From contig OZ246416.1 of NCBI GenBank assembly GCA_965231095.1, forward strand, positions 805,595-869,594: a stretch of 64,000 nt of DNA. Reading direction: 5' to 3'. The stretch is from an uncultured Gammaproteobacteria bacterium (GTDB lineage: Bacteria > Patescibacteriota > Patescibacteriia > XYB2-FULL-38-15). This document shows, in pieces, positions 1,872-55,127 of the stretch. The position numbers and the translations under genes are program-made. The first letter of the stretch is position 1, and every line of letters begins with the position of its first letter. The notes beneath the pieces are model-generated. The model saw only the letters and a program-made list of their open reading frames with translations. It was not told the origin of the DNA and made no database searches.

Positions 1872-3683
1872 TTATTTAAATATTGCCTCAAATGCTTCTT
1901 TTTCAATGGTTTCTTTTTCCAGCAAAATTTTCACAATTTCTTCAAGTTTGTCTTTTTTCTTTCTGATAATTTCCAGAGCTGTTTTTGCGGCGTCGGATAA
2001 AAGATGGCCGATTTCTTGATCAATGGTTTCCGCCACTTTTTCGCTGTAGTCGCGTTGTTCGTGAATTTCCCGGCCGAGGAAAATCATTTCTTCTTTTTCG
2101 CCAAAAGTTCTGGCACCCAATTTTTCACTCATGCCAAATTCAGTAATAAGCCGGCGGGCAAGCCGTGTGGCCACTCGCAGATCGTTTGAGGCTCCGGTTG
2201 TCACTTCGCCAAAAATTTCTTTTTCCACGGTATGGCCGGCGAGCATTACGGCCAGGTCGTCAATAAATTCCGAGCGGCTGTGCAAATGCTTGTCTTCAAT
2301 CGGAAGTTTTAAGGTATAGCCGGCGGCGCGACCGCGGGAAATAATGGAAACTTTATGAACCGGATCGGCATGCGGCAGTTCGTGGGCGGTGAGGGCGTGG
2401 GCCGCTTCGTGGTAAGCAGTGATATTTCTTTCTTTGTCGGAAAGAATATGGCTTTTGCGCTCGGGCCCAAGCAAAACTTTTTCCACGCTTTCCCGAAGTT
2501 CGTCCATCCCGATTTGAGTTTTGTTTCTTCTGGCTGTTAAGATGGCCGCTTCGTTTAAGAGGTTTGCAAGATCAGCGCCGGAAAATCCCGGAGTTCGTTC
2601 AGCGATTTTTCTAAGGTCAACGTCTGTGGTGATTGGTTTTCCCTTGGCGTGAATTTTTAAAATTGCTTCGCGGTCGTTCATGTCCGGTTCATCCAAAATT
2701 ACTCGCCGGTCAAATCTTCCGGGACGCAAAAGCGCCGGGTCCAAGACGTCTGGTCGGTTTGTGGCCGCTAAAATTATCACGCCGGAGTTGGCTTCAAAGC
2801 CATCCATCTCCACTAAAATTTGATTTAAAGTTTGTTCGCGTTCGTCGTGGCTACCGCCCAACCCCGTGCCGCGCTGGCGGCCGACAGCGTCGAGTTCATC
2901 AATAAAAATAATGCAGGGCGCGCTTTTTTTTGCTTTTTGGAAAAGATCACGAACGCGGGCGGCGCCGACTCCGACAAACATTTCCACAAATTCCGAACCG
3001 GAAATGCTAAAAAACGGAACATTGGCTTCGCCGGCCACGGCTCTGGCAAGTAAAGTTTTTCCCGTGCCCGGAGACCCCATCAATAAAACGCCTTTGGGAA
3101 TTTTCGCTCCGAGTTGGACAAATTTTTTTGAATTTTTTAAAAACTCCACCACTTCCCAAAGTTCTTCTTTGGCTTCCTTGACTCCGGCCACGTCTTTAAA
3201 AGTGACGCGGTTTTTGGAATTTTTTGGAGCTTCTCTCGCGCCCGATTGGCCAAAACTCATGGCCTTGGTGTTCGCGCCTTGGACTTGGCGCATCATATAA
3301 TAAATCAGGGCGATGACAACCACAAGCGGAAGAAGAAAGGGGAGAAGGGCGTTTAGCCAAAAACTCCAGCCGGATTCTTCAGTCACTTCAATTGCGATAT
3401 TTTTAATTTTTTCCGGATCAGCGTGGTAATTTTGAAAAAGTTCGCCCAAGGTTTCATTTGTTTCTTTACGCAGGGTTTCAAGCGTTCCGTCAAATTTCGT
3501 GATGTTTAATTTATCTCCTTCAATCGCGATTTTCTGGATGTCGCCGGCGTTAATTTGGTCCACAAATTTTTGCAGATCAATATTTTCCACTTTTTCCGCC
3601 GAGTAATTCAGAGCGCCAAAAATTCCGCTGATGGCGAGAAAGATAATTAAAAATATAATAAAATTTTTGATGAGGTTTTTCAT
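1872..3683 (-). CDS. ftsH: ATP-dependent zinc metalloprotease FtsH
   Basis: N-terminal TM segment, AAA+ Walker A ([18 protein letters not shown]), second region of homology, and HEAAHA zinc motif. Length 603 aa. Confidence 0.95.
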
Positions 3684-4342: not shown

Positions 4343-5560
4343 TTATTCTTTTTTCTCTTCGGCTGGCGCTTCAACTTTTTCTGTTTCCGGTTTTGCTTCT
4401 TCCGCCGGCTTTTCTTCGGCAACTTTCTCTTCAACTTTTTCTTCCAATTTTTCCGGAGATTTTTCGCGCGCCGCGCGGAGGCTTAAACCCAGGCGATGGT
4501 CAACCGGTTCAATGGAAATAATTTTAAATTTCAGTGTGTCGCCGATTTTCGCCACTTCGTTTGGGCTCTGAATCGCTTTATTGGAAAGTTCGGAAATATG
4601 CGCCAGGCCATGAATTTCCGGATCAAGTTCCACAAATAAACCAAACGGATTTATTTTTAAAACTTTTCCTTCCACAACGTCGCCAACATTATATTTCTCG
4701 TTGATTTTTTTCCAAGGATCATCAATTAATTTTTTCATTGACAAGAAAATTTTTGATCCTTCCACGCCAATAATTTCCGCTTTTATTTCTTGGCCAGCCT
4801 TGACCACATCATCGGGATGATCAATTCTCTGCCAAGCAAGTTCGGAAATATGGACAAGTCCCTCTAGGTTATCAAATTTTACGAAGACACCGAAATCGGC
4901 TAGGGCAGAAACGGTGCCGGAAATTATATCGCCGACTTTGTAAGCGGAAATAATATTTTTCTGCTTTTCTTCCCAGGCCGCTTTTTCCGAAACAATTAAT
5001 TTTTCCTCTTCTTCGCCGACGTCAATGACTTTAACCTCAAGCGGAATTCCGACAAAAGTTTTTAGTTTTTCCAATATTTTATTTTTCTCGCCGCCCGGCA
5101 CGCGCGGATAATGTTCCGGCGCAAGTTGGGAAACCGGCAAGAAGCCAACAATTTTATTTACATTAATCATCAAGCCGCCTTTGTTCGCGTCCATCACGGT
5201 CGCGATAACAATTTCTCCGGATTTTTGAAGTTCAATAAGTTTGTCCCAGATTTTTTTATGTCCGGCAAAACGGAAAGACAATTCCATTTCCCCGCGTTCA
5301 TTTTCCATTTCCAAAACCGTGGCTTCGGTTTCGTCGCCCGGTTTTAATTCCGAATAATCGGCCGATTCATTACAGAGTTCCTGGCCGCGGACCACGCCGG
5401 TTCTAAACCCCGGAATGTCCAAAGTAACTTCGTTTTTGCTGATTGTCAAAACTGTCGCTTTAACGACATCTCCGACTTTGGGAATGGTAAAATTGCTTTC
5501 AGCCAGCAATTTTTCAAATTCTCCACTCTCGGTCTTTTTTGTTAGATTTGTTAGATCCAT
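4343..5560 (-). CDS. rpsA: 30S ribosomal protein S1 (four S1 domains)
   Basis: Repeated S1-domain signatures (GxV.G.V......GLFV.L..GIEGLVHISE). Acidic C-terminal tail. 405 aa. Confidence 0.85.
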   Translation of the reverse strand: MDLTNLTKKTESGEFEKLLAESNFTIPKVGDVVKATVLTISKNEVTLDIPGFRTGVVRGQELCNESADYSELKPGDETEATVLEMENERGEMELSFRFAGHKKIWDKLIELQKSGEIVIATVMDANKGGLMINVNKIVGFLPVSQLAPEHYPRVPGGEKNKILEKLKTFVGIPLEVKVIDVGEEEEKLIVSEKAAWEEKQKNIISAYKVGDIISGTVSALADFGVFVKFDNLEGLVHISELAWQRIDHPDDVVKAGQEIKAEIIGVEGSKIFLSMKKLIDDPWKKINEKYNVGDVVEGKVLKINPFGLFVELDPEIHGLAHISELSNKAIQSPNEVAKIGDTLKFKIISIEPVDHRLGLSLRAAREKSPEKLEEKVEEKVAEEKPAEEAKPETEKVEAPAEEKKE

Positions 5561-5697
5561 AGTTAATAATTAGTGAGATCGCCGGATGCTCCGGTGAATC
5601 CCAAAACTCCTTTCTTTAGTTAAGATGAAAGTATTGTACAACATCTTGAAATTTTTGGCAAGGGGTGATAAAATTGGATAAAGAATAAAGCGCGTGT

Positions 5698-6087
5698 ATG
5701 AATAATTTTTTGATTTTTTTAAAAAATATGAGTGGAAAAATTTTAGAAATGTTTAGAGGAAAAGATCCGTCCCGGCTCGAGGAGCAAGAAAAGGAAAAGG
5801 GGCCAACGGTGGTGGAAATTGTGCGCTACGTGGCCGGAGAGCCAGAGCCAATAATTTTTGTAAGGTGTGAGTTGGCTGGCGAAGAAGTTAGACTGACTGT
5901 AGTGGAAGACCAAAAGAGCCAAGAAGATCTCGCTGGGGCGCGAAATATTTTTAAGTCACTAGAAGAGATGGGTGTTTTTTCCGCAGTGGAGCAAAGAGAC
6001 ATCTACCCCAAAGACGGCCGGAAATTTTTGGAAGCGCTTTTACAAAATTACGACAATCCTTATTTACTAGCCAGGGTAACAAAATAA
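5698..6087 (+). CDS. hypothetical protein (129 aa), first gene of a 3-gene operon with the HipA/PI3K-like kinase
   Basis: ORF sits 11 nt upstream of the next gene. No recognised motif. Confidence 0.4.
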   Translation: MNNFLIFLKNMSGKILEMFRGKDPSRLEEQEKEKGPTVVEIVRYVAGEPEPIIFVRCELAGEEVRLTVVEDQKSQEDLAGARNIFKSLEEMGVFSAVEQRDIYPKDGRKFLEALLQNYDNPYLLARVTK

Positions 6088-6098
6088 AAAATAAATTT

Positions 6099-7394
6099 AT
6101 GAGAGGAGAACGAGCGCCAATTTTACCGCCAGTGCCGGAAGGGGTTGATTTGAGCGAAGAGAAAAAAAGAGAAGAAGAAAAGAAACTGGGGTTTGAGACA
6201 ACCCTTTTACATAACGTGGATAAAATTTTAGACAAAACTGTTTTAGATGTGAAAAGGACGAGTGGGGAAGCTCGGACGGAAAAAGAATCACGCAGGGAAA
6301 TTCCGGAGATTTTGCAGCGAGCCGACACTATAGACGCGGCTATGTTTGAGGTGAGATTGGAGGAGGCGATGAGTTTAGGGGGAGAGGAAGCAACTGATTC
6401 AACTAGGGTGGCGGGGATTCGCGGAGTTTTAAAGGAACTTAATGCTTGCCAGGAGATTAGAGAAGCAAAACCAAAAGATCCCGATCATCCTACAAAGAAT
6501 CTTGGCGACAAACTCGGTTTAACGCCAGAGCAAATAGAAGAAGGGCTAATTACTAATCGTTCGTTTATTTTGGATCTGGCTGAACGAGGGCAATCTTTGG
6601 AGACGGTTTATAAACCAAGCCGCGGCGAACCGGATTTTTTGGTGAGAGGAGGGATTGAGGAGCAGACAGGATATAGGAGAGAGTGGTTAGCTCGTAAAGT
6701 TTCCGAGGCGTTTGAATTGGGTATTGTTCCACCCACAGTTTTGAGAAAAGAAGGGGAAGGGATTGGTTCAGTGCAAAAGTGGGTTGAGGGGGCAAAAACT
6801 CCCGAGGAAGCGCCTGATCGAATAATGATGCAAGATGAATTAGTTAAATTGGCTCTTTTAGATTATTTAATTGGCAATCAGGATAGAGTGCATGGGCGCA
6901 ATCACTTGATTGGCAAAGCGGGAGAGGTTTACGCCATTGATAACAGTTTAAGTTTCAACGCCCCTCTTTATAACGAAGAGGGAGAAGAACGCGTGTCGGC
7001 TCTTCAGGTTGCCTCTCTGCCGTTGGAACAAATAAAAAATGTTGATGAGAATGTTCACACAAAAGTAGTGATGAAACACCTCCAAGTTTTTTGGAATTCG
7101 CCAGCCAGACAGAGAGTATTGAAAGAGGCGTTTAAATTCGCTTTGGGCGAAGACGCGGAAGATGTTTGGCGAGCTTTTTCATTGCGCGTCCAAGAAACTT
7201 TAGAAAAAGAAATGTTGCCGCTTGCTCATGAAGTCTCCCGTACAGAAGTTACCGCCACGCCCGAGGAATTGGCCAGAAATCCAAAAAGGTGGGGAGCTGA
7301 TTTAGTTAAAATGCAGGAAAGTCTAAGAGATGAAGCGACTGGTAAAATTTTTCGAAAAGCCAAGCTGTCCGCTGCGATTGAAGCCGCCGCTTAA
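6099..7394 (+). CDS. hypothetical protein with HipA / PI3-PI4-kinase-like atypical kinase catalytic motifs
   Basis: LLDYLIGNQDRVHGRNHLI matches the catalytic loop [LIV]IGNxDxHxxN of HipA_C and PI3/4-kinases. The downstream VYAIDNSLSF resembles the Mg-binding DFG / AYD segment. A candidate ATP-binding Lys lies in ETVYKPSRGE. The N-terminal ~150 aa are highly charged. Confidence 0.5.
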   Translation: MRGERAPILPPVPEGVDLSEEKKREEEKKLGFETTLLHNVDKILDKTVLDVKRTSGEARTEKESRREIPEILQRADTIDAAMFEVRLEEAMSLGGEEATDSTRVAGIRGVLKELNACQEIREAKPKDPDHPTKNLGDKLGLTPEQIEEGLITNRSFILDLAERGQSLETVYKPSRGEPDFLVRGGIEEQTGYRREWLARKVSEAFELGIVPPTVLRKEGEGIGSVQKWVEGAKTPEEAPDRIMMQDELVKLALLDYLIGNQDRVHGRNHLIGKAGEVYAIDNSLSFNAPLYNEEGEERVSALQVASLPLEQIKNVDENVHTKVVMKHLQVFWNSPARQRVLKEAFKFALGEDAEDVWRAFSLRVQETLEKEMLPLAHEVSRTEVTATPEELARNPKRWGADLVKMQESLRDEATGKIFRKAKLSAAIEAAA

Positions 7395-7405
7395 CAAAAT
7401 TTTTT

Positions 7406-7942
7406 ATGGCGCAAAAATTATCTGAATTTTTAAAAACTGCGAGCCGGACCTCTTATGTTAAAAGTTCGGTGAAGCAGGCTGTTTCAAAAATGGGGTTGAA
7501 TCCGGCGCGCCAAGTGAGTGAACGGCAGGCCAGAGAAGTTTTGGGTGAATTAAAAAAAGCCGGCGCGATTAAAACTTACCGCTCGTCCGAACAGATTGTC
7601 AGGGAAACGCAAAAATCATTGGCGGAAAGAAATAAACAAGACGACGCGCCAAAATTGACAGTAGAAGCTTTAAGAGAGCAGCGCAAGGCGGAAGAAGAGA
7701 AAAAAGAGAGAATGAGAAAAATGATGTCTAATATTTACGGCCAAGAACGAGCGCGCGAGGAAGAGAAAGAAAAAGGAGACGGGAAAGTAAAAAGAAATGT
7801 GGCGACTTCGGCCCTAAAACCGAAAGCCGCGCCGGGTCGGGCGGAAACAACAACCTCAATTTTGCGAAGTCAAAAAAATGCGGAGAAAAAAACCGCGCCG
7901 GAAGAAAAACCGCCGCAGGCGATTGATTTACAAATCGATTAG
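7406..7942 (+). CDS. hypothetical Lys/Glu-rich protein (178 aa), probably disordered
   Basis: 11-nt gap after the kinase-like gene. Low-complexity charged sequence. A bidirectional terminator follows at 8001-8031. Confidence 0.45.
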   Translation: MAQKLSEFLKTASRTSYVKSSVKQAVSKMGLNPARQVSERQAREVLGELKKAGAIKTYRSSEQIVRETQKSLAERNKQDDAPKLTVEALREQRKAEEEKKERMRKMMSNIYGQERAREEEKEKGDGKVKRNVATSALKPKAAPGRAETTTSILRSQKNAEKKTAPEEKPPQAIDLQID

Positions 7943-8000
7943 TTATAAAATTTTTTAAAATAAAAATTCGTCGGAAGGCGGATTTTTTTGTATATAAATA

Positions 8001-8051: not shown

Positions 8052-8354
8052 CTAGTATTCCTCGTCGTCTCCCTCTGGGACGTGCCTAGTCACAGCGTCG
8101 TCTGGCGATTGCTCTTCTTCGTCACTTTTGGACGCGGGTTTTCCGTGTCCCGGGCAGCCGCCCTTTTCGCCCGGACCTCGTTCGTCGTAGATGTCGTCTT
8201 CGTCGCCCTCCTCGCTGGCGCTGAAGCCTTCGTGCATGCCACAATAAGGATTAGTGCAGTCGTGGCTCCATGTGTGGCGGTCTTTCCAACGGTAGGTGCA
8301 GACGATTTGGCCCTTTCCACATTTCGGACAAACGGTTTTGTTCCCTTCGCTCAT
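8052..8354 (-). CDS. GC-rich small zinc-ribbon-like protein with acidic C-terminal tail (100 aa)
   Basis: SD AGGAGGG upstream of the ATG, with its own terminator. N-terminal region has CPKCG...C...C..C....C. C-terminus is DEEEQSPDDAVTRHVPEGDDEEY. GC and codon usage are unlike neighbouring genes. Confidence 0.5.
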   Translation of the reverse strand: MSEGNKTVCPKCGKGQIVCTYRWKDRHTWSHDCTNPYCGMHEGFSASEEGDEDDIYDERGPGEKGGCPGHGKPASKSDEEEQSPDDAVTRHVPEGDDEEY

Positions 8355-9169: not shown

Positions 9170-9757
9170 ATGGAAAAAGTTTTGAAAAAAAGTAAAAAAA
9201 TTGTTCGTAAAAAATCAGGGAGGAAGGAAGTGGAGATCCCCGTTTTTGTGATTAGTAAAAAAGAAAAAGCGGCAGCGAAAGCAGAAGAAAAAAAATTTGG
9301 AATTTTTAAGGATGGAGATAATTTGCCGGTTTTTAAGAATTTTTTCCCCGGGACCCCGGACGAAGAAAAAAACGGTTTAGAAGAAAAAACATATAAAAAA
9401 GAAGCCGAAGTTTTGGTTTATAAAAAAGAAAGTTTAAGAAAGAAATCGCTCTTGCCCGAATTGCCTAGAAAGATTATAATGTGGGCAAGTGTCGCGGTTT
9501 TTGCGTGCTTGATTTTTTTTATATGGTTTTCCGGTTTGAAAAATAATTTTTCCGGATGGTTTGGTTCCGCGAGTTATACCTTCGCCCGCCAGGGAGAAAT
9601 TTTAGAAGAAGTGGGTAACGGCGCGGAAGAAGTAAACAATGAAGCCGCCGTTTCGGAGGAAGCGGGACAGGAAGGCGATGGCGTGGACGGGAAAGAAATT
9701 TTGGATCAAATTAAAGAGAAAATTTTAGTTGAAGAATTGAAAAACAAATTAGAATAA
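9170..9757 (+). CDS. hypothetical membrane-anchored protein (single TM)
   Basis: Lys-rich N-terminus, one hydrophobic segment (IIMWASVAVFACLIFFIWF) and an acidic C-terminus. Confidence 0.45.
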   Translation: MEKVLKKSKKIVRKKSGRKEVEIPVFVISKKEKAAAKAEEKKFGIFKDGDNLPVFKNFFPGTPDEEKNGLEEKTYKKEAEVLVYKKESLRKKSLLPELPRKIIMWASVAVFACLIFFIWFSGLKNNFSGWFGSASYTFARQGEILEEVGNGAEEVNNEAAVSEEAGQEGDGVDGKEILDQIKEKILVEELKNKLE

Positions 9758-23195: not shown

Positions 23196-24188
23196 ATGAG
23201 GGCGCCTTCATGTGCTGGTCTTGAGGCCGGCGAGGAAGTCATTCTCTGCCGGGTGGAAGAACGGTGGGAAGTGGCTGTAGCGAGGATTCGGTTCGGCCGC
23301 GAAGCGCTCTGTCTCGCGTTGCAGAATTTCATTTTGTTTCTCGGGCACCTTTTGGAAATGTCCGGCGAGACGAGCAAGATCGACCAGATCCTGGCCGCGG
23401 TCGGGAGAGCGAAACTTCCGGAGAAGAAGGAGTTCACCGATCTCGAGGGTCAGAGCCTGCGGGTCATGGAGACCAAGTGGTCTGCTGTGGCTCAAGAAAT
23501 TCGAGCGGGTACAATGGCTCTCTTCCCGGCCTCTGAGGAATTTCTGATGTACGTCGGGAGATACCTCATTGGTCGGGCAGAATCGAAATCGTCCGAGAAG
23601 TCCTGGGCGGAGAAGCAGCAGCTGATGATGCAGGGATTCTACCGCTCTCTCATAGCGGATAACGTCCACATCGCGGCAGAGCTCCGGATCAAGGTTCCTT
23701 CTGGGACTGACGACCAGATTCGGGAGTGGTTCGCCATGGGGAAGAATCTCATCTACGAGCCCTCGGAATACGAAATTCCGGGCGCGCGTCTCATGGCCGC
23801 TCTGCCGCATCGAATGCTGGTGGACGACCCGGGTCAAATCGTCTGGGAGCCGGTTAGAGAAGGACGCTGGCTTCTGGTTGACGCCCAGGAACACTGCCCG
23901 GGTGCCGGCGATCGGTCTTACCGGGGTTACGAAATGGCTCTTGAGAGAGGCCGGCGGATCATCACTCTGCCGCAGTACGCCATCCTCTGGTACATCGGCG
24001 GACTCGGCGGGGAGATCCTGGATCCCGAGACGGACACACTGCTCGCGACTCGCTACGGCGCGGACAGCGTTCTCCACGCTTTCGGCCGGTGCGCCATGCG
24101 AGACCTCCGGTTCTCGGTCGGCGAGTGGCGACACACCACGAAGAAACATCCCAAGATGGGAGTGCGGCTAGTGGAGGTTGTCGCATGA
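23196..24188 (+). CDS. GC-rich hypothetical protein (330 aa)
   Basis: Candidate promoter (TTGACA-17-TTAAAT plus an extended -10 TGTAGAAT) and SD AAGGAGA upstream. Protein-like composition; the antisense ORF (23208-24149) is Pro/Arg/Ser junk. Strong terminator at 24201-24243. Confidence 0.5.
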   Translation: MRAPSCAGLEAGEEVILCRVEERWEVAVARIRFGREALCLALQNFILFLGHLLEMSGETSKIDQILAAVGRAKLPEKKEFTDLEGQSLRVMETKWSAVAQEIRAGTMALFPASEEFLMYVGRYLIGRAESKSSEKSWAEKQQLMMQGFYRSLIADNVHIAAELRIKVPSGTDDQIREWFAMGKNLIYEPSEYEIPGARLMAALPHRMLVDDPGQIVWEPVREGRWLLVDAQEHCPGAGDRSYRGYEMALERGRRIITLPQYAILWYIGGLGGEILDPETDTLLATRYGADSVLHAFGRCAMRDLRFSVGEWRHTTKKHPKMGVRLVEVVA

Positions 24189-54417: not shown

Positions 54418-54446
54418 CGCCCAAGAAATTGGGAAGGAGGACAAGA

Positions 54447-55127
54447 ATGTTGCCTAGGGGTTGTCCGAGCGAAAGAGCTCTGTTTCGGCAGATGTTCGAT
54501 AAGCAGGTTGATCGGCTCGTTACAGGCGGCTGGCATACGGTGTTGGGGTGGGCAGAAAAAGATCTTCGCATCTATCTCGGCATGCTAGTTGATCCGCCGA
54601 GCGGCGTCCTCTATGAGGTCAGGGTGGAGACCCCGGACCATCTCCCACTTCTTGTAGTGATTCCGCACGCTATACTCCCGATTGAGCGCCAGATGGAGCG
54701 GCTTGTCGTGGCCAAGAAGCACGGTTACGCGAGCCTTGACTCGGAAAAACTCTGGAATCCCGAGGGAATCGGCGAGTCCAAATCGCCCTATCTAATCTGT
54801 GACGTCGATGACGGCGCAGAGAATGTGGGGCTAGCCACAGGCGAAGTTGCGGGAGGAATCAGCCGCGCTTGTCGGCAAGGACTCATTATGGAGGAGGCGA
54901 TTGCTCTCGCCCTCCATTCGCCGGAATCGCTCGTCCATCATGCTTTTGCGCTGATTGGCGTAGACTACCAGATCGCGCCTTGGTCGGGAAATGGGCCGCG
55001 CCGTCAGTGTGTTCCGGAGCTCTGGAACGGATCTGGCGGGCCGACGCAGAATTACAGTCCGCTCAATAGCAAGAGAGAAGACCGCGGCGTGCCGTCCTGC
55101 AAGAGGCGCTTGTTTTTGAACGGGTAA
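54447..55127 (+). CDS. GC-rich hypothetical protein (226 aa)
   Basis: SD GGAAGGAGG upstream of the ATG at 54447. Protein-like composition. The antisense ORF 54831-55247 is junk. Terminator at 55144-55181. Confidence 0.5.
   Translation: MLPRGCPSERALFRQMFDKQVDRLVTGGWHTVLGWAEKDLRIYLGMLVDPPSGVLYEVRVETPDHLPLLVVIPHAILPIERQMERLVVAKKHGYASLDSEKLWNPEGIGESKSPYLICDVDDGAENVGLATGEVAGGISRACRQGLIMEEAIALALHSPESLVHHAFALIGVDYQIAPWSGNGPRRQCVPELWNGSGGPTQNYSPLNSKREDRGVPSCKRRLFLNG

Follow-up and report, generated by a model that had tools for sequence, protein, structure and literature searches.

A PI4KII-like kinase and its small linked partner, a candidate effector and inhibitor, in a Patescibacteriota chromosome and in phage head proteins

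Introduction

What would an atypical kinase, encoded together with two smaller proteins, do among the housekeeping genes of a streamlined bacterial genome? The question is raised by a locus in a stretch of 64,000 nucleotides (positions 805,595 to 869,594 of the 886-kb contig OZ246416.1; hereafter the window) from an uncultured, Falkowbacteria-like bacterium that GTDB places in the Patescibacteriota. An initial annotation had described the locus as a three-gene operon centred on a HipA/PI3-PI4-kinase-like protein, and had suggested that it could be a new kinase-based toxin-antitoxin (TA), defence or effector module. Here we report that the kinase, named K, is an intact atypical kinase closest to the eukaryotic type II phosphatidylinositol (PI) 4-kinases (PI4KII) and not to HipA, that it is linked to a small protein, A, and that relatives of both are encoded by phages, where the kinase is carried by head proteins. 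We propose that K may be an effector kinase with A as its cognate inhibitor, accompanied by a basic accessory protein, C.

Results

A three-gene unit

The listing of open reading frames (ORFs) in the window contains three co-directional ORFs on the + strand at this locus, which we named A, K and C:

5698..6087, + strand, gene A, ORF of 129 amino acids (aa)
6099..7394, + strand, gene K, ORF of 431 aa
7406..7942, + strand, gene C, ORF of 178 aa

This listing confirms the three-ORF operon layout described initially, with the same sizes (129, 431 and 178 aa). The tight coupling also stands, with the correction that the A/K spacer (6088-6098) and the K/C spacer (7395-7405) are both 11 nucleotides (nt) long, and neither is 12 nt as the earlier range of 11-12 nt allowed. 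The start of A is uncertain, as the 112-aa product of the source record (P0171) implies a start at 5749 and another ATG lies at 5728.

K is an intact atypical kinase closest to PI4KII

K comprises an N-terminal three-helix extension (residues ~19-122), a PI3/PI4-kinase-like catalytic core (~130-300) and a C-terminal helical bundle (~307-370). The three motifs picked out in the initial annotation are present in the core:

6606..6629, + strand, VYKPSRGE (K residues 170-177), containing the ATP-binding Lys172 (6612-6614) and Glu177; aligns with AVFKPKNEEP of PI4K2A
6855..6911, + strand, catalytic loop LLDYLIGNQDRVHGRNHLI (K residues 253-271), containing Asp262 (6882-6884) and Asn268 (6900-6902)
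6927..6956, + strand, VYAIDNSLSF (K residues 277-286), containing the metal-binding Asp281 (6939-6941), the DFG equivalent; aligns with AAIDNGLAF of PI4K2A

In a profile alignment, the loop LLDYLIGNQDRVHGRNHLI matches LDYIIRNTDRGNDNWLI of PI4K2A, and the same alignment pairs the YKP...E, VPPT, GIGSVQxW, catalytic loop and AIDNG segments of the two proteins. Across the 60 best K relatives, K172, R216, N268, D281 and F345 are invariant, with E177 and D262 nearly so. Both this conservation and the PI4K2A alignment support the roles first given to the motifs, namely ATP-binding Lys, catalytic loop and Mg-binding Asp.

The family of K is large. An exhaustive profile search identified 5058 representative clusters at E<=1e-3, of which 1652 remained at <=1e-10 and 62 at <=1e-30; a word-index homologue search with the 60-sequence kinase alignment returned 14 proteins. 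Searched alone against Pfam, K gave sub-threshold matches to PI3_PI4_kinase (E 0.0086) and Fam20C (0.057). Its score of 16.5 bits is below the PF00454 gathering cutoff of 27.1, which many of its relatives pass, including phage versions; PF00454 was found in 44 of the 60 best relatives, Fam20C in three and HipA_C, weakly, in two. The nearest match in NCBIfam was to TIGR03843, the SCO1664 family (E 6e-18, 65.1 bits, below the curated cutoff of 172.4). No MuF or portal domain was detected in K by hidden Markov model (HMM) and profile searches.

Against PDB sequences, the K-family profile matched PI4K2A best (1.5e-10), followed by PI4K2B (3e-8), PI4KIII-beta (1e-5), Vps34 (8e-4) and Fam20 (1e-3). 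Foldseek returned 4hne as the top match for K (E 3e-7), and the structural-neighbour figures were 18.8 for PI4KII-alpha, 13.5-14.3 for Fam20, 12.6 for CtkA, 11.9 for Legionella HipT, 11.6 for actin-fragmin kinase, 11.1 for PI3K-alpha, 10.9 for E. coli HipT and 10.8 for HipA. The PI3/PI4-kinase catalytic fold expected of a type II PI 4-kinase is present and its Lys, Asp...Asn and Asp residues are in register, so the motifs fall inside a conserved catalytic geometry. The structure and profile comparisons thus bear out the atypical kinase with a PI3/PI4-kinase-like fold that was first proposed, with PI4KII as the closest relatives. As judged from its intact catalytic residues, K is probably a catalytically competent, ATP-dependent phosphotransferase.

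The HipA half of the original label did not hold. K had no match to HipA_C at E<=1, HipA was not among the 60 PDB matches listed for the K-family profile, and hhalign of the K family with E. coli K-12 HipA aligned the 28-column catalytic loop alone (probability 27.6%). With no HipA_C match, a loop-only alignment and a lower structural score, we rejected K as a member of the HipA family.

A belongs to an unannotated family linked to K

Gene A encodes a small acidic alpha/beta protein with a folded core at residues ~38-129 (AlphaFold2 mean predicted local distance difference test score 82, core >90). A profile search with A retrieved 27 proteins, none of them annotated; counts of A homologues are lower bounds, given the low sensitivity of word-index searching of proteins in this case. 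Sequence searches with A in Pfam, NCBIfam and PDB returned nothing significant, and A is the founding member of an unannotated family. The family shares the motif FPKDGxxFLxxLxxxYxxxYLxA, and G92, G107, F110 and Y122 are invariant, with no invariant Ser or Thr.

Every A homologue for which a contig was fetched adjoins a K-like kinase, in either order (loci are numbered from L001). The A-K order is found in the window, L001, L002, L003, L004, L008, L012/13 and L014. The K-A order is found in unrelated neighbourhoods at three further sites: L005, with a 592-aa kinase; L015/16, where DUF192, a 275-aa kinase and an 84-aa A follow one another; and L017/18, with a 559-aa kinase and a 129-aa A. The A-K pair is an ancient unit, to which C is a clade-specific addition.

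Two possible identities for A were tried. As a DUF3090 homologue, which would make the locus the CPR (candidate phyla radiation) version of the DUF3090-SCO1664 pair, A was rejected at the sequence-profile level (hhalign probability 0.2%). No sequence relation to HipA was found either, and the likeness of A to HipS is a weak fold echo only.

In one bacterial lineage, DUF192 lies directly upstream of the K-A pair (L015:2727-4255 and L016:229-1859), and a phage protein of 1295 aa (L036:594-4481) joins DUF192 to a K-like domain, which suggests that DUF192 is functionally linked to the K kinase family.

A and K diverge as an allelic cassette

The genome scan found four loci, the source genome not being among them, and the metagenome scan found two; among the relatives that carry an organism name, the closest is a metagenome-assembled genome of Candidatus Falkowbacteria (L004). 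All eight related contigs carry A-K-C or A-K, so that the triad is conserved in relatives. L001, L002, L003 and L004 have A-K-C in the same order and in the same S1...LacB...GyrA neighbourhood, L008 and L014 have A-K only (their contigs end after K), and in L012/13 A-K is accompanied by a C-like gene in which only the C-terminal peptide described below is retained.

Protein identities between the window and L004 are uneven: 90% for FtsH, 91% for S1, 93% for GyrA, 87% for LacB and 80% for C, against 43% for A and 38% for K. At the DNA level, identity is 83-91% in S1, 40-49% from ~5560 to ~7400, and 70-81% inside C, which delimits one segment:

5560..7400, no strand assigned, A+K cassette replaced relative to L004, with sharp breakpoints

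Synonymous divergence (dS) is 0.8-1.4 in the flanks, whereas the proportion of synonymous sites that differ (pS) is 0.73-0.80 in A and K, which is saturated. Because synonymous sites are saturated and identity is no higher than 38-43% in A and K of close relatives whose flanks are 85-93% identical, A+K behaves as a swapped allelic cassette, which has been replaced by a deeply diverged allele, presumably through recombination. Faster protein evolution was rejected as the only cause of the divergence, as the saturation at synonymous sites affects A and K and not the flanks.

The identity matrices of A and K yield the same three allele classes, namely window/L001/L008, L002 alone, and L003/L004/L012/L014. 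Within a class, all three genes are under purifying selection, the ratio of nonsynonymous to synonymous divergence (dN/dS) being 0.09-0.18 in K, 0.13-0.30 in A and 0.11-0.13 in C.

The third class differs in its catalytic loop, where AQ(A/T)DG(K/R)PAN (e.g. AQADGKPAN) replaces GNQDRxHGRN and a ~30-residue insert precedes the loop. This K still has the Lys, Asp, Asn and Asp residues, and therefore has either an altered loop chemistry or relaxed catalysis. Its genes are:

L003:2928-4244, third-class K
L004:5752-7068, third-class K
L012:5420-6682, third-class K
L014:5408-6715, third-class K

The K proteins of the clade (L001-L004, L008, L012 and L014) are 34-46% identical between classes, and all end in -AAA or -EAA, an ending that distant K relatives do not have. 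This tail could be a degron-like or docking peptide, to judge by inference only. In the window it lies at:

7383..7391, + strand, -AAA tail at the C terminus of K; each of the three deep allele classes has -AAA or -EAA

C is exchanged independently of A and K

As initially noted, C is K/E-rich (26% K+E); 38% of its residues are charged, its isoelectric point (pI) is 9.9 and its grand average of hydropathy is -1.15. From this composition it is plausibly disordered. An ETTTS segment within C is conserved. C has no family, Pfam, NCBIfam or PDB match, and its homologues are confined to this clade, with none seen at loci outside it. The six C homologues have a single block in common, which is retained even in the L012 version that cannot otherwise be aligned:

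7907..7939, + strand, C-terminal peptide KPPQAIDLQID of C, consensus P-x-A-[IV]-D-L-x-I-D-COOH

The window C is 80-84% identical to those of L003 and L004 but 43% identical to that of L001, the K proteins of the window and L001 being 78% identical. Because C sorts into classes differently from A and K, it is exchanged independently of A+K. It could be an accessory component, acting as a substrate, an adaptor or a regulator.

Relatives of K are cargo of phage head proteins

In scans of IMG/VR, K-like domains were detected at 35 loci, mostly in proteins of 400-2167 aa. In L020, the gene for a distant K relative of 984 aa (P0167) is directly 3' of a phage portal gene, and an A-like ORF of 88 aa comes next. 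L031 joins Phage_portal (8.8e-60), Phage_Mu_F (2.4e-20) and PI3_PI4_kinase matches in a single protein. Further Pfam architectures pair the kinase with Phage_Mu_F (L033), Phage_min_cap2 (L034), Phage_portal_3 (L042), a metallopeptidase (L028) or DUF192 (L036), and L041 and L046 have NUDIX with three kinase-like stretches. Two phage relatives have sub-threshold HipA_2 matches.

HMM-supported A homologues are encoded directly 3' of the kinase ORF in L020, L023/24, L042 and L051, and 600 nt downstream in L022. In about half of the remaining loci the kinase ORF is followed by an ORF of 60-130 aa, several of which end in an A-like YLxA..V, a visual impression without statistical support; attempts to extend the A-family HMM iteratively to these small ORFs, with the database size set conservatively, reached no convergence on further members. 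An N-terminal leader, EGGxGSGNWGHKGRPGxxGGS, is common to the L023/24 kinase and three or four virion-type ORFs beside it, and is missing from the A-like ORF.

This arrangement has a known counterpart. Genes for MuF proteins come after portal genes, bear C-terminal toxins and are then followed by a small immunity ORF (PMC5576092), and cassette-like diversification is typical of polymorphic toxin loci (PMC5512222). The survey of MuF toxins does not use the word "kinase" in its main text. The kinases reported in polyvalent proteins are of a C-lobe-less Ser/Thr/Tyr type and a zeta-toxin type, unlike K. At the window locus, K carries no portal or MuF N-terminal domain and has no flanking phage genes, features that are found with the kinases of L031, L033, L034, L042 and L020. 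A small ORF does adjoin the kinase gene, A being 11 nt from K, but it is upstream.

Several other features of these and similar proteins were observed. Four or five consecutive ORFs, including the kinase, open with the same ~45-residue leader, ending in the EGGxGSGNWGHKGRPGxxGGS sequence, in the IMG/VR phage contigs L023 (3667-7139) and L024 (2579-7317), and the 929-aa protein of L022 has two ESDHPRxDxGxF repeats; the shared leader and the repeats look like targeting or processing signals of virion cargo proteins. In a group made up of P0021 (3184 aa), P0035 (2892 aa), P0163 (6164 aa), P0166/L021:1531-5106, L041 and L046, giant proteins contain up to four K-like stretches, and a recurrent architecture has an N-terminal NUDIX, then two or three PI3_PI4-kinase-like stretches, with an ORF of 61-71 aa after it.

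Flanking genes and expression signals

The neighbours of the unit in the window are:

1872-3683, - strand, upstream ftsH
4343-5560, - strand, upstream S1-domain gene (rpsA-like), divergent to A
8052-8354, - strand, downstream small Cys-rich acidic ORF of 100 aa
8516-9166, downstream metallo-beta-lactamase-fold gene (LacB)
9170-9757, + strand, downstream ORF of 195 aa
9764-12256, downstream gyrA

Two candidate expression signals were identified by pattern:

5646..5674, + strand, sigma-70-like promoter candidate TTGAAA-17-TAAAAT with an upstream TG, in the S1/A divergent intergenic region; consensus match only
7962..7987, + strand, terminator-like hairpin followed by a T-run, after C; pattern match only

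These candidates count as weak evidence because such sites are no more numerous in the region than in shuffled sequence. The promoter candidate lies within the segment replaced between relatives.

In the 100-aa ORF at 8052-8354, the N-terminal part has a Cys-rich segment resembling a zinc ribbon (CPKC...C...C..PYC) and the tail is very acidic. This ORF is missing from L004, where the alignment has an indel, and a 59%-identical stretch is present in L012. The C-to-LacB interval is a variable islet, with other small genes there in L001 and L012, including tandem or fused paralogues of ~75-97 aa. In the LacB-gyrA interval, the 195-aa ORF at 9170-9757 (+ strand) has one hydrophobic segment and is 46% identical to its L003 and L004 counterparts, while its neighbours are 85-93% identical; with pS 0.70 and dN/dS ~0.2, it is a second fast-diverging gene hereabouts. 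Elsewhere in the window, the segments 23196-24188 and 54429-55127 have ~51% G+C against a window average of ~43%. Each holds one ORF of unknown function, that at 23196-24188 together with a long antisense ORF, and both segments may be foreign DNA.

Discussion

A proposed effector kinase with its inhibitor

We favour the reading that K is an effector kinase with a cognate inhibitor, A, and a basic accessory, C, and put its probability at roughly 0.5. A would bind K and most likely hold it inactive, so that A would take the antitoxin or immunity role and K that of the effector or toxin, probably acting on a protein rather than a lipid. In tailed phages the kinase is fused behind portal and/or MuF head domains, with the A-like gene directly downstream in the immunity position. 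In the CPR lineage the unit is chromosomal and single-copy, in what would be antitoxin-first order (A then K), and fixed between S1 and the metallo-beta-lactamase-fold gene near gyrA. Capture or sharing may have placed the unit both in phage head-cargo proteins and on CPR chromosomes, with A as an inhibitor co-evolving with K. C is a clade-specific third component marked by its conserved C-terminal peptide; as it is exchanged independently, the parts of K that it contacts are probably conserved ones and not allele-specific.

That A would inhibit rather than activate K is favoured indirectly by the immunity position and missing leader of the A-like phage ORF, by the co-diversified alleles and by the tight, antitoxin-first spacing of A and K.

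Several observations weigh against this reading. No A-K fusion was found among 194 proteins fetched, including 150 listed kinase representatives. About 28 of the 33 phage K-like loci have no HMM-detectable A homologue. At the window locus there are no mobile-element genes, and the A-K site is identical in 8/8 related contigs, among housekeeping genes, unlike the typically patchy TA and defence modules; the mobile, patchy distribution of generic type II TA systems is not seen here, as alleles alone are exchanged. Family searches found no helix-turn-helix (HTH) or DNA-binding autoregulator in A or C. PADLOC 2.0 gave only sub-threshold matches of catalytic-loop length (PDC-M03A, E 0.005-0.012), and defence-system and phage-family models run against A, K, C and D returned nothing meaningful. 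Finally, K may act on something other than protein, since the nearest relatives with solved structures are kinases of lipids. The early suggestion of a new kinase-based TA, defence or effector module has thus gained circumstantial support from the phage MuF cargo, the immunity-position A and the cassette exchange, while the fixed locus and the lack of a defence match speak against it.

Other readings of the unit

The best surviving alternative, which we nevertheless regard as unlikely, is that K is a cytoplasmic signalling kinase, with A as an activating or targeting subunit or a substrate, C as a substrate or scaffold, and phages having captured the pair to reprogramme their hosts. Such a housekeeping two-subunit kinase would suit the fixed vertical position between S1/FtsH and GyrA and the purifying selection on the three genes. 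It would also suit their single-copy state (the window holds no second copy of A, K or C), the lack of a defence or TA model match, and the company of distant K-A pairs, which lie among genes for RNase Y, ClpP, trigger factor, guanylate kinase and dUTPase. The acidity of K (pI 5.2) opposite the strongly basic C (pI 9.9) would likewise fit an enzyme with its substrate or adaptor. A housekeeping pair, however, is not expected to be 38-43% identical with synonymous saturation while its flanks are 85-93% identical. A is probably not a Ser/Thr substrate, because it has no invariant Ser or Thr, and its phage counterpart sits in the immunity position without the leader shared by its neighbours. C, for its part, is absent outside this clade.

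We consider it improbable that K is a lipid or small-molecule (inositol-type) kinase, for which A would be a substrate-presenting or regulatory subunit. Its substrate would then be a phosphoinositide-like lipid or a metabolite containing inositol or a sugar, in the manner of the type II PI 4-kinases and perhaps of the mshC-linked SCO1664 proteins. Its best structure and sequence matches are type II PI 4-kinases, and the segment past the metal-binding Asp aligns with AIDNGLAFP of PI4KII, which are points in favour of this reading. A CCPCC insert, though, is a defining feature of PI4KII, and K has a single Cys and therefore no CCPCC-type palmitoylation motif. Nor is there a sign of membrane anchoring in this acidic protein, which has no hydrophobic or amphipathic membrane segment and a longest hydrophobic run of four residues. 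No lipid or inositol metabolism gene is nearby in the window, the next-best structural neighbours are protein or glycan kinases (Fam20, CtkA, HipT and actin-fragmin kinase), and the portal/MuF cargo context better suits protein or nucleic-acid targets.

The SCO1664 family offers a further link to inositol. SCO1664 proteins are uncharacterised actinobacterial signature proteins reported to be invariably linked to mshC, a gene of the inositol-containing thiol mycothiol (PMC4255298). We found the operon His_Phos_1 - DUF3090 - SCO1664 kinase, with genes overlapping at stop and start codons, in L006 (4530-8181), L007 (3053-5617) and L011 (3776-5867), with mshC 3' of it in L006 and L007 and not in L011. 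Against such a link for K, the window locus has no DUF3090, His_Phos_1 or mshC, and no relation of A to DUF3090 was detectable at the profile level.

A highly diverged split HipA, with A as HipS-like and K as HipT-like parts that phosphorylate an aminoacyl-tRNA synthetase and arrest translation and with C in place of HipB, is very improbable: a ~100-aa protein followed tightly by a kinase in a three-gene operon does resemble hipS-hipT of hipBST (PMC6581861), and two phage relatives have the HipA_2 matches given above, but K lacks HipA_C and aligns with E. coli HipA over a 28-column loop, A has no HipA sequence relation, no HTH protein is encoded (the upstream neighbour is the divergent S1 gene, not an HTH gene), and the gene order differs, with a C that is downstream and not HipB-like.

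Significance

Returning to the effector-inhibitor reading, we tentatively suggest, at slightly under even odds, that A and K represent an undescribed effector-immunity family, in which a PI4KII-like kinase weapon and a small inhibitor occur with virion-delivered phage portal/MuF proteins and in the chromosomes of ultra-small CPR bacteria, as deeply divergent, recombining cassettes at a fixed housekeeping locus in the latter, possibly for kin discrimination, abortive infection or host-cell manipulation. What is new here is the A family beside K, the K-like domains as phage portal/MuF cargo with an A-like ORF, and the swapping of A+K as a cassette with C independent of it.

We found no experimental study of the PI4KII-like/SCO1664 kinase superfamily in the literature searched. 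The small partner and the loading onto phage head proteins, in the place taken by injected effectors or toxins, make this superfamily testable, and K, as a prokaryotic relative of the type II PI 4-kinase fold, is perhaps a lead to SCO1664 function. If the toxin-immunity relationship is true, it would add a new enzymatic class to MuF/polyvalent phage weaponry and extend kinase toxins beyond HipA, and streamlined CPR genomes would be seen to keep a polymorphic conflict locus among their core genes.

Comparison with known systems

Compared with PI4K2A and PI4K2B (PDB 4hnd, 4pla and 4wtv), K lacks the Cys-rich palmitoylation insert and the membrane-binding surface; it is acidic, and has a bacterial-type N-terminal three-helix extension, a C-terminal helical bundle and a dedicated small partner. 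SCO1664/TIGR03843 is the nearest named bacterial family, with the same core motifs and a gene that also directly follows that of a small-to-medium partner. Those proteins are minimal (250-290 aa), and K is a relative rather than a member. Fam20 and the Golgi casein kinases, H. pylori CtkA, CotH and actin-fragmin kinase score lower with K than PI4KII does; they are secreted or spore-coat proteins with other accessory domains and no A-like partner.

With HipBST the unit shares the gene of a ~100-aa protein tightly 5' of an atypical kinase in a three-gene operon (PMC6581861), and K lies in the same broad fold neighbourhood as HipT and HipA, with a similar neutralisation logic as proposed. As the initial annotation had recognised, the gene order and partners are unlike those of HipBA and HipBST: K has no HipA_C, there is no HipB-type HTH, the third gene is downstream and unrelated, and the locus is fixed and inherited vertically, not patchy. 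Like MuF toxins and phage polyvalent effectors, K relatives are the C-terminal cargo of portal, MuF and minor-capsid fusions with A relatives encoded directly downstream; the window unit differs from these in its A-then-K order, where MuF loci have toxin then immunity gene, and in lying outside a prophage.

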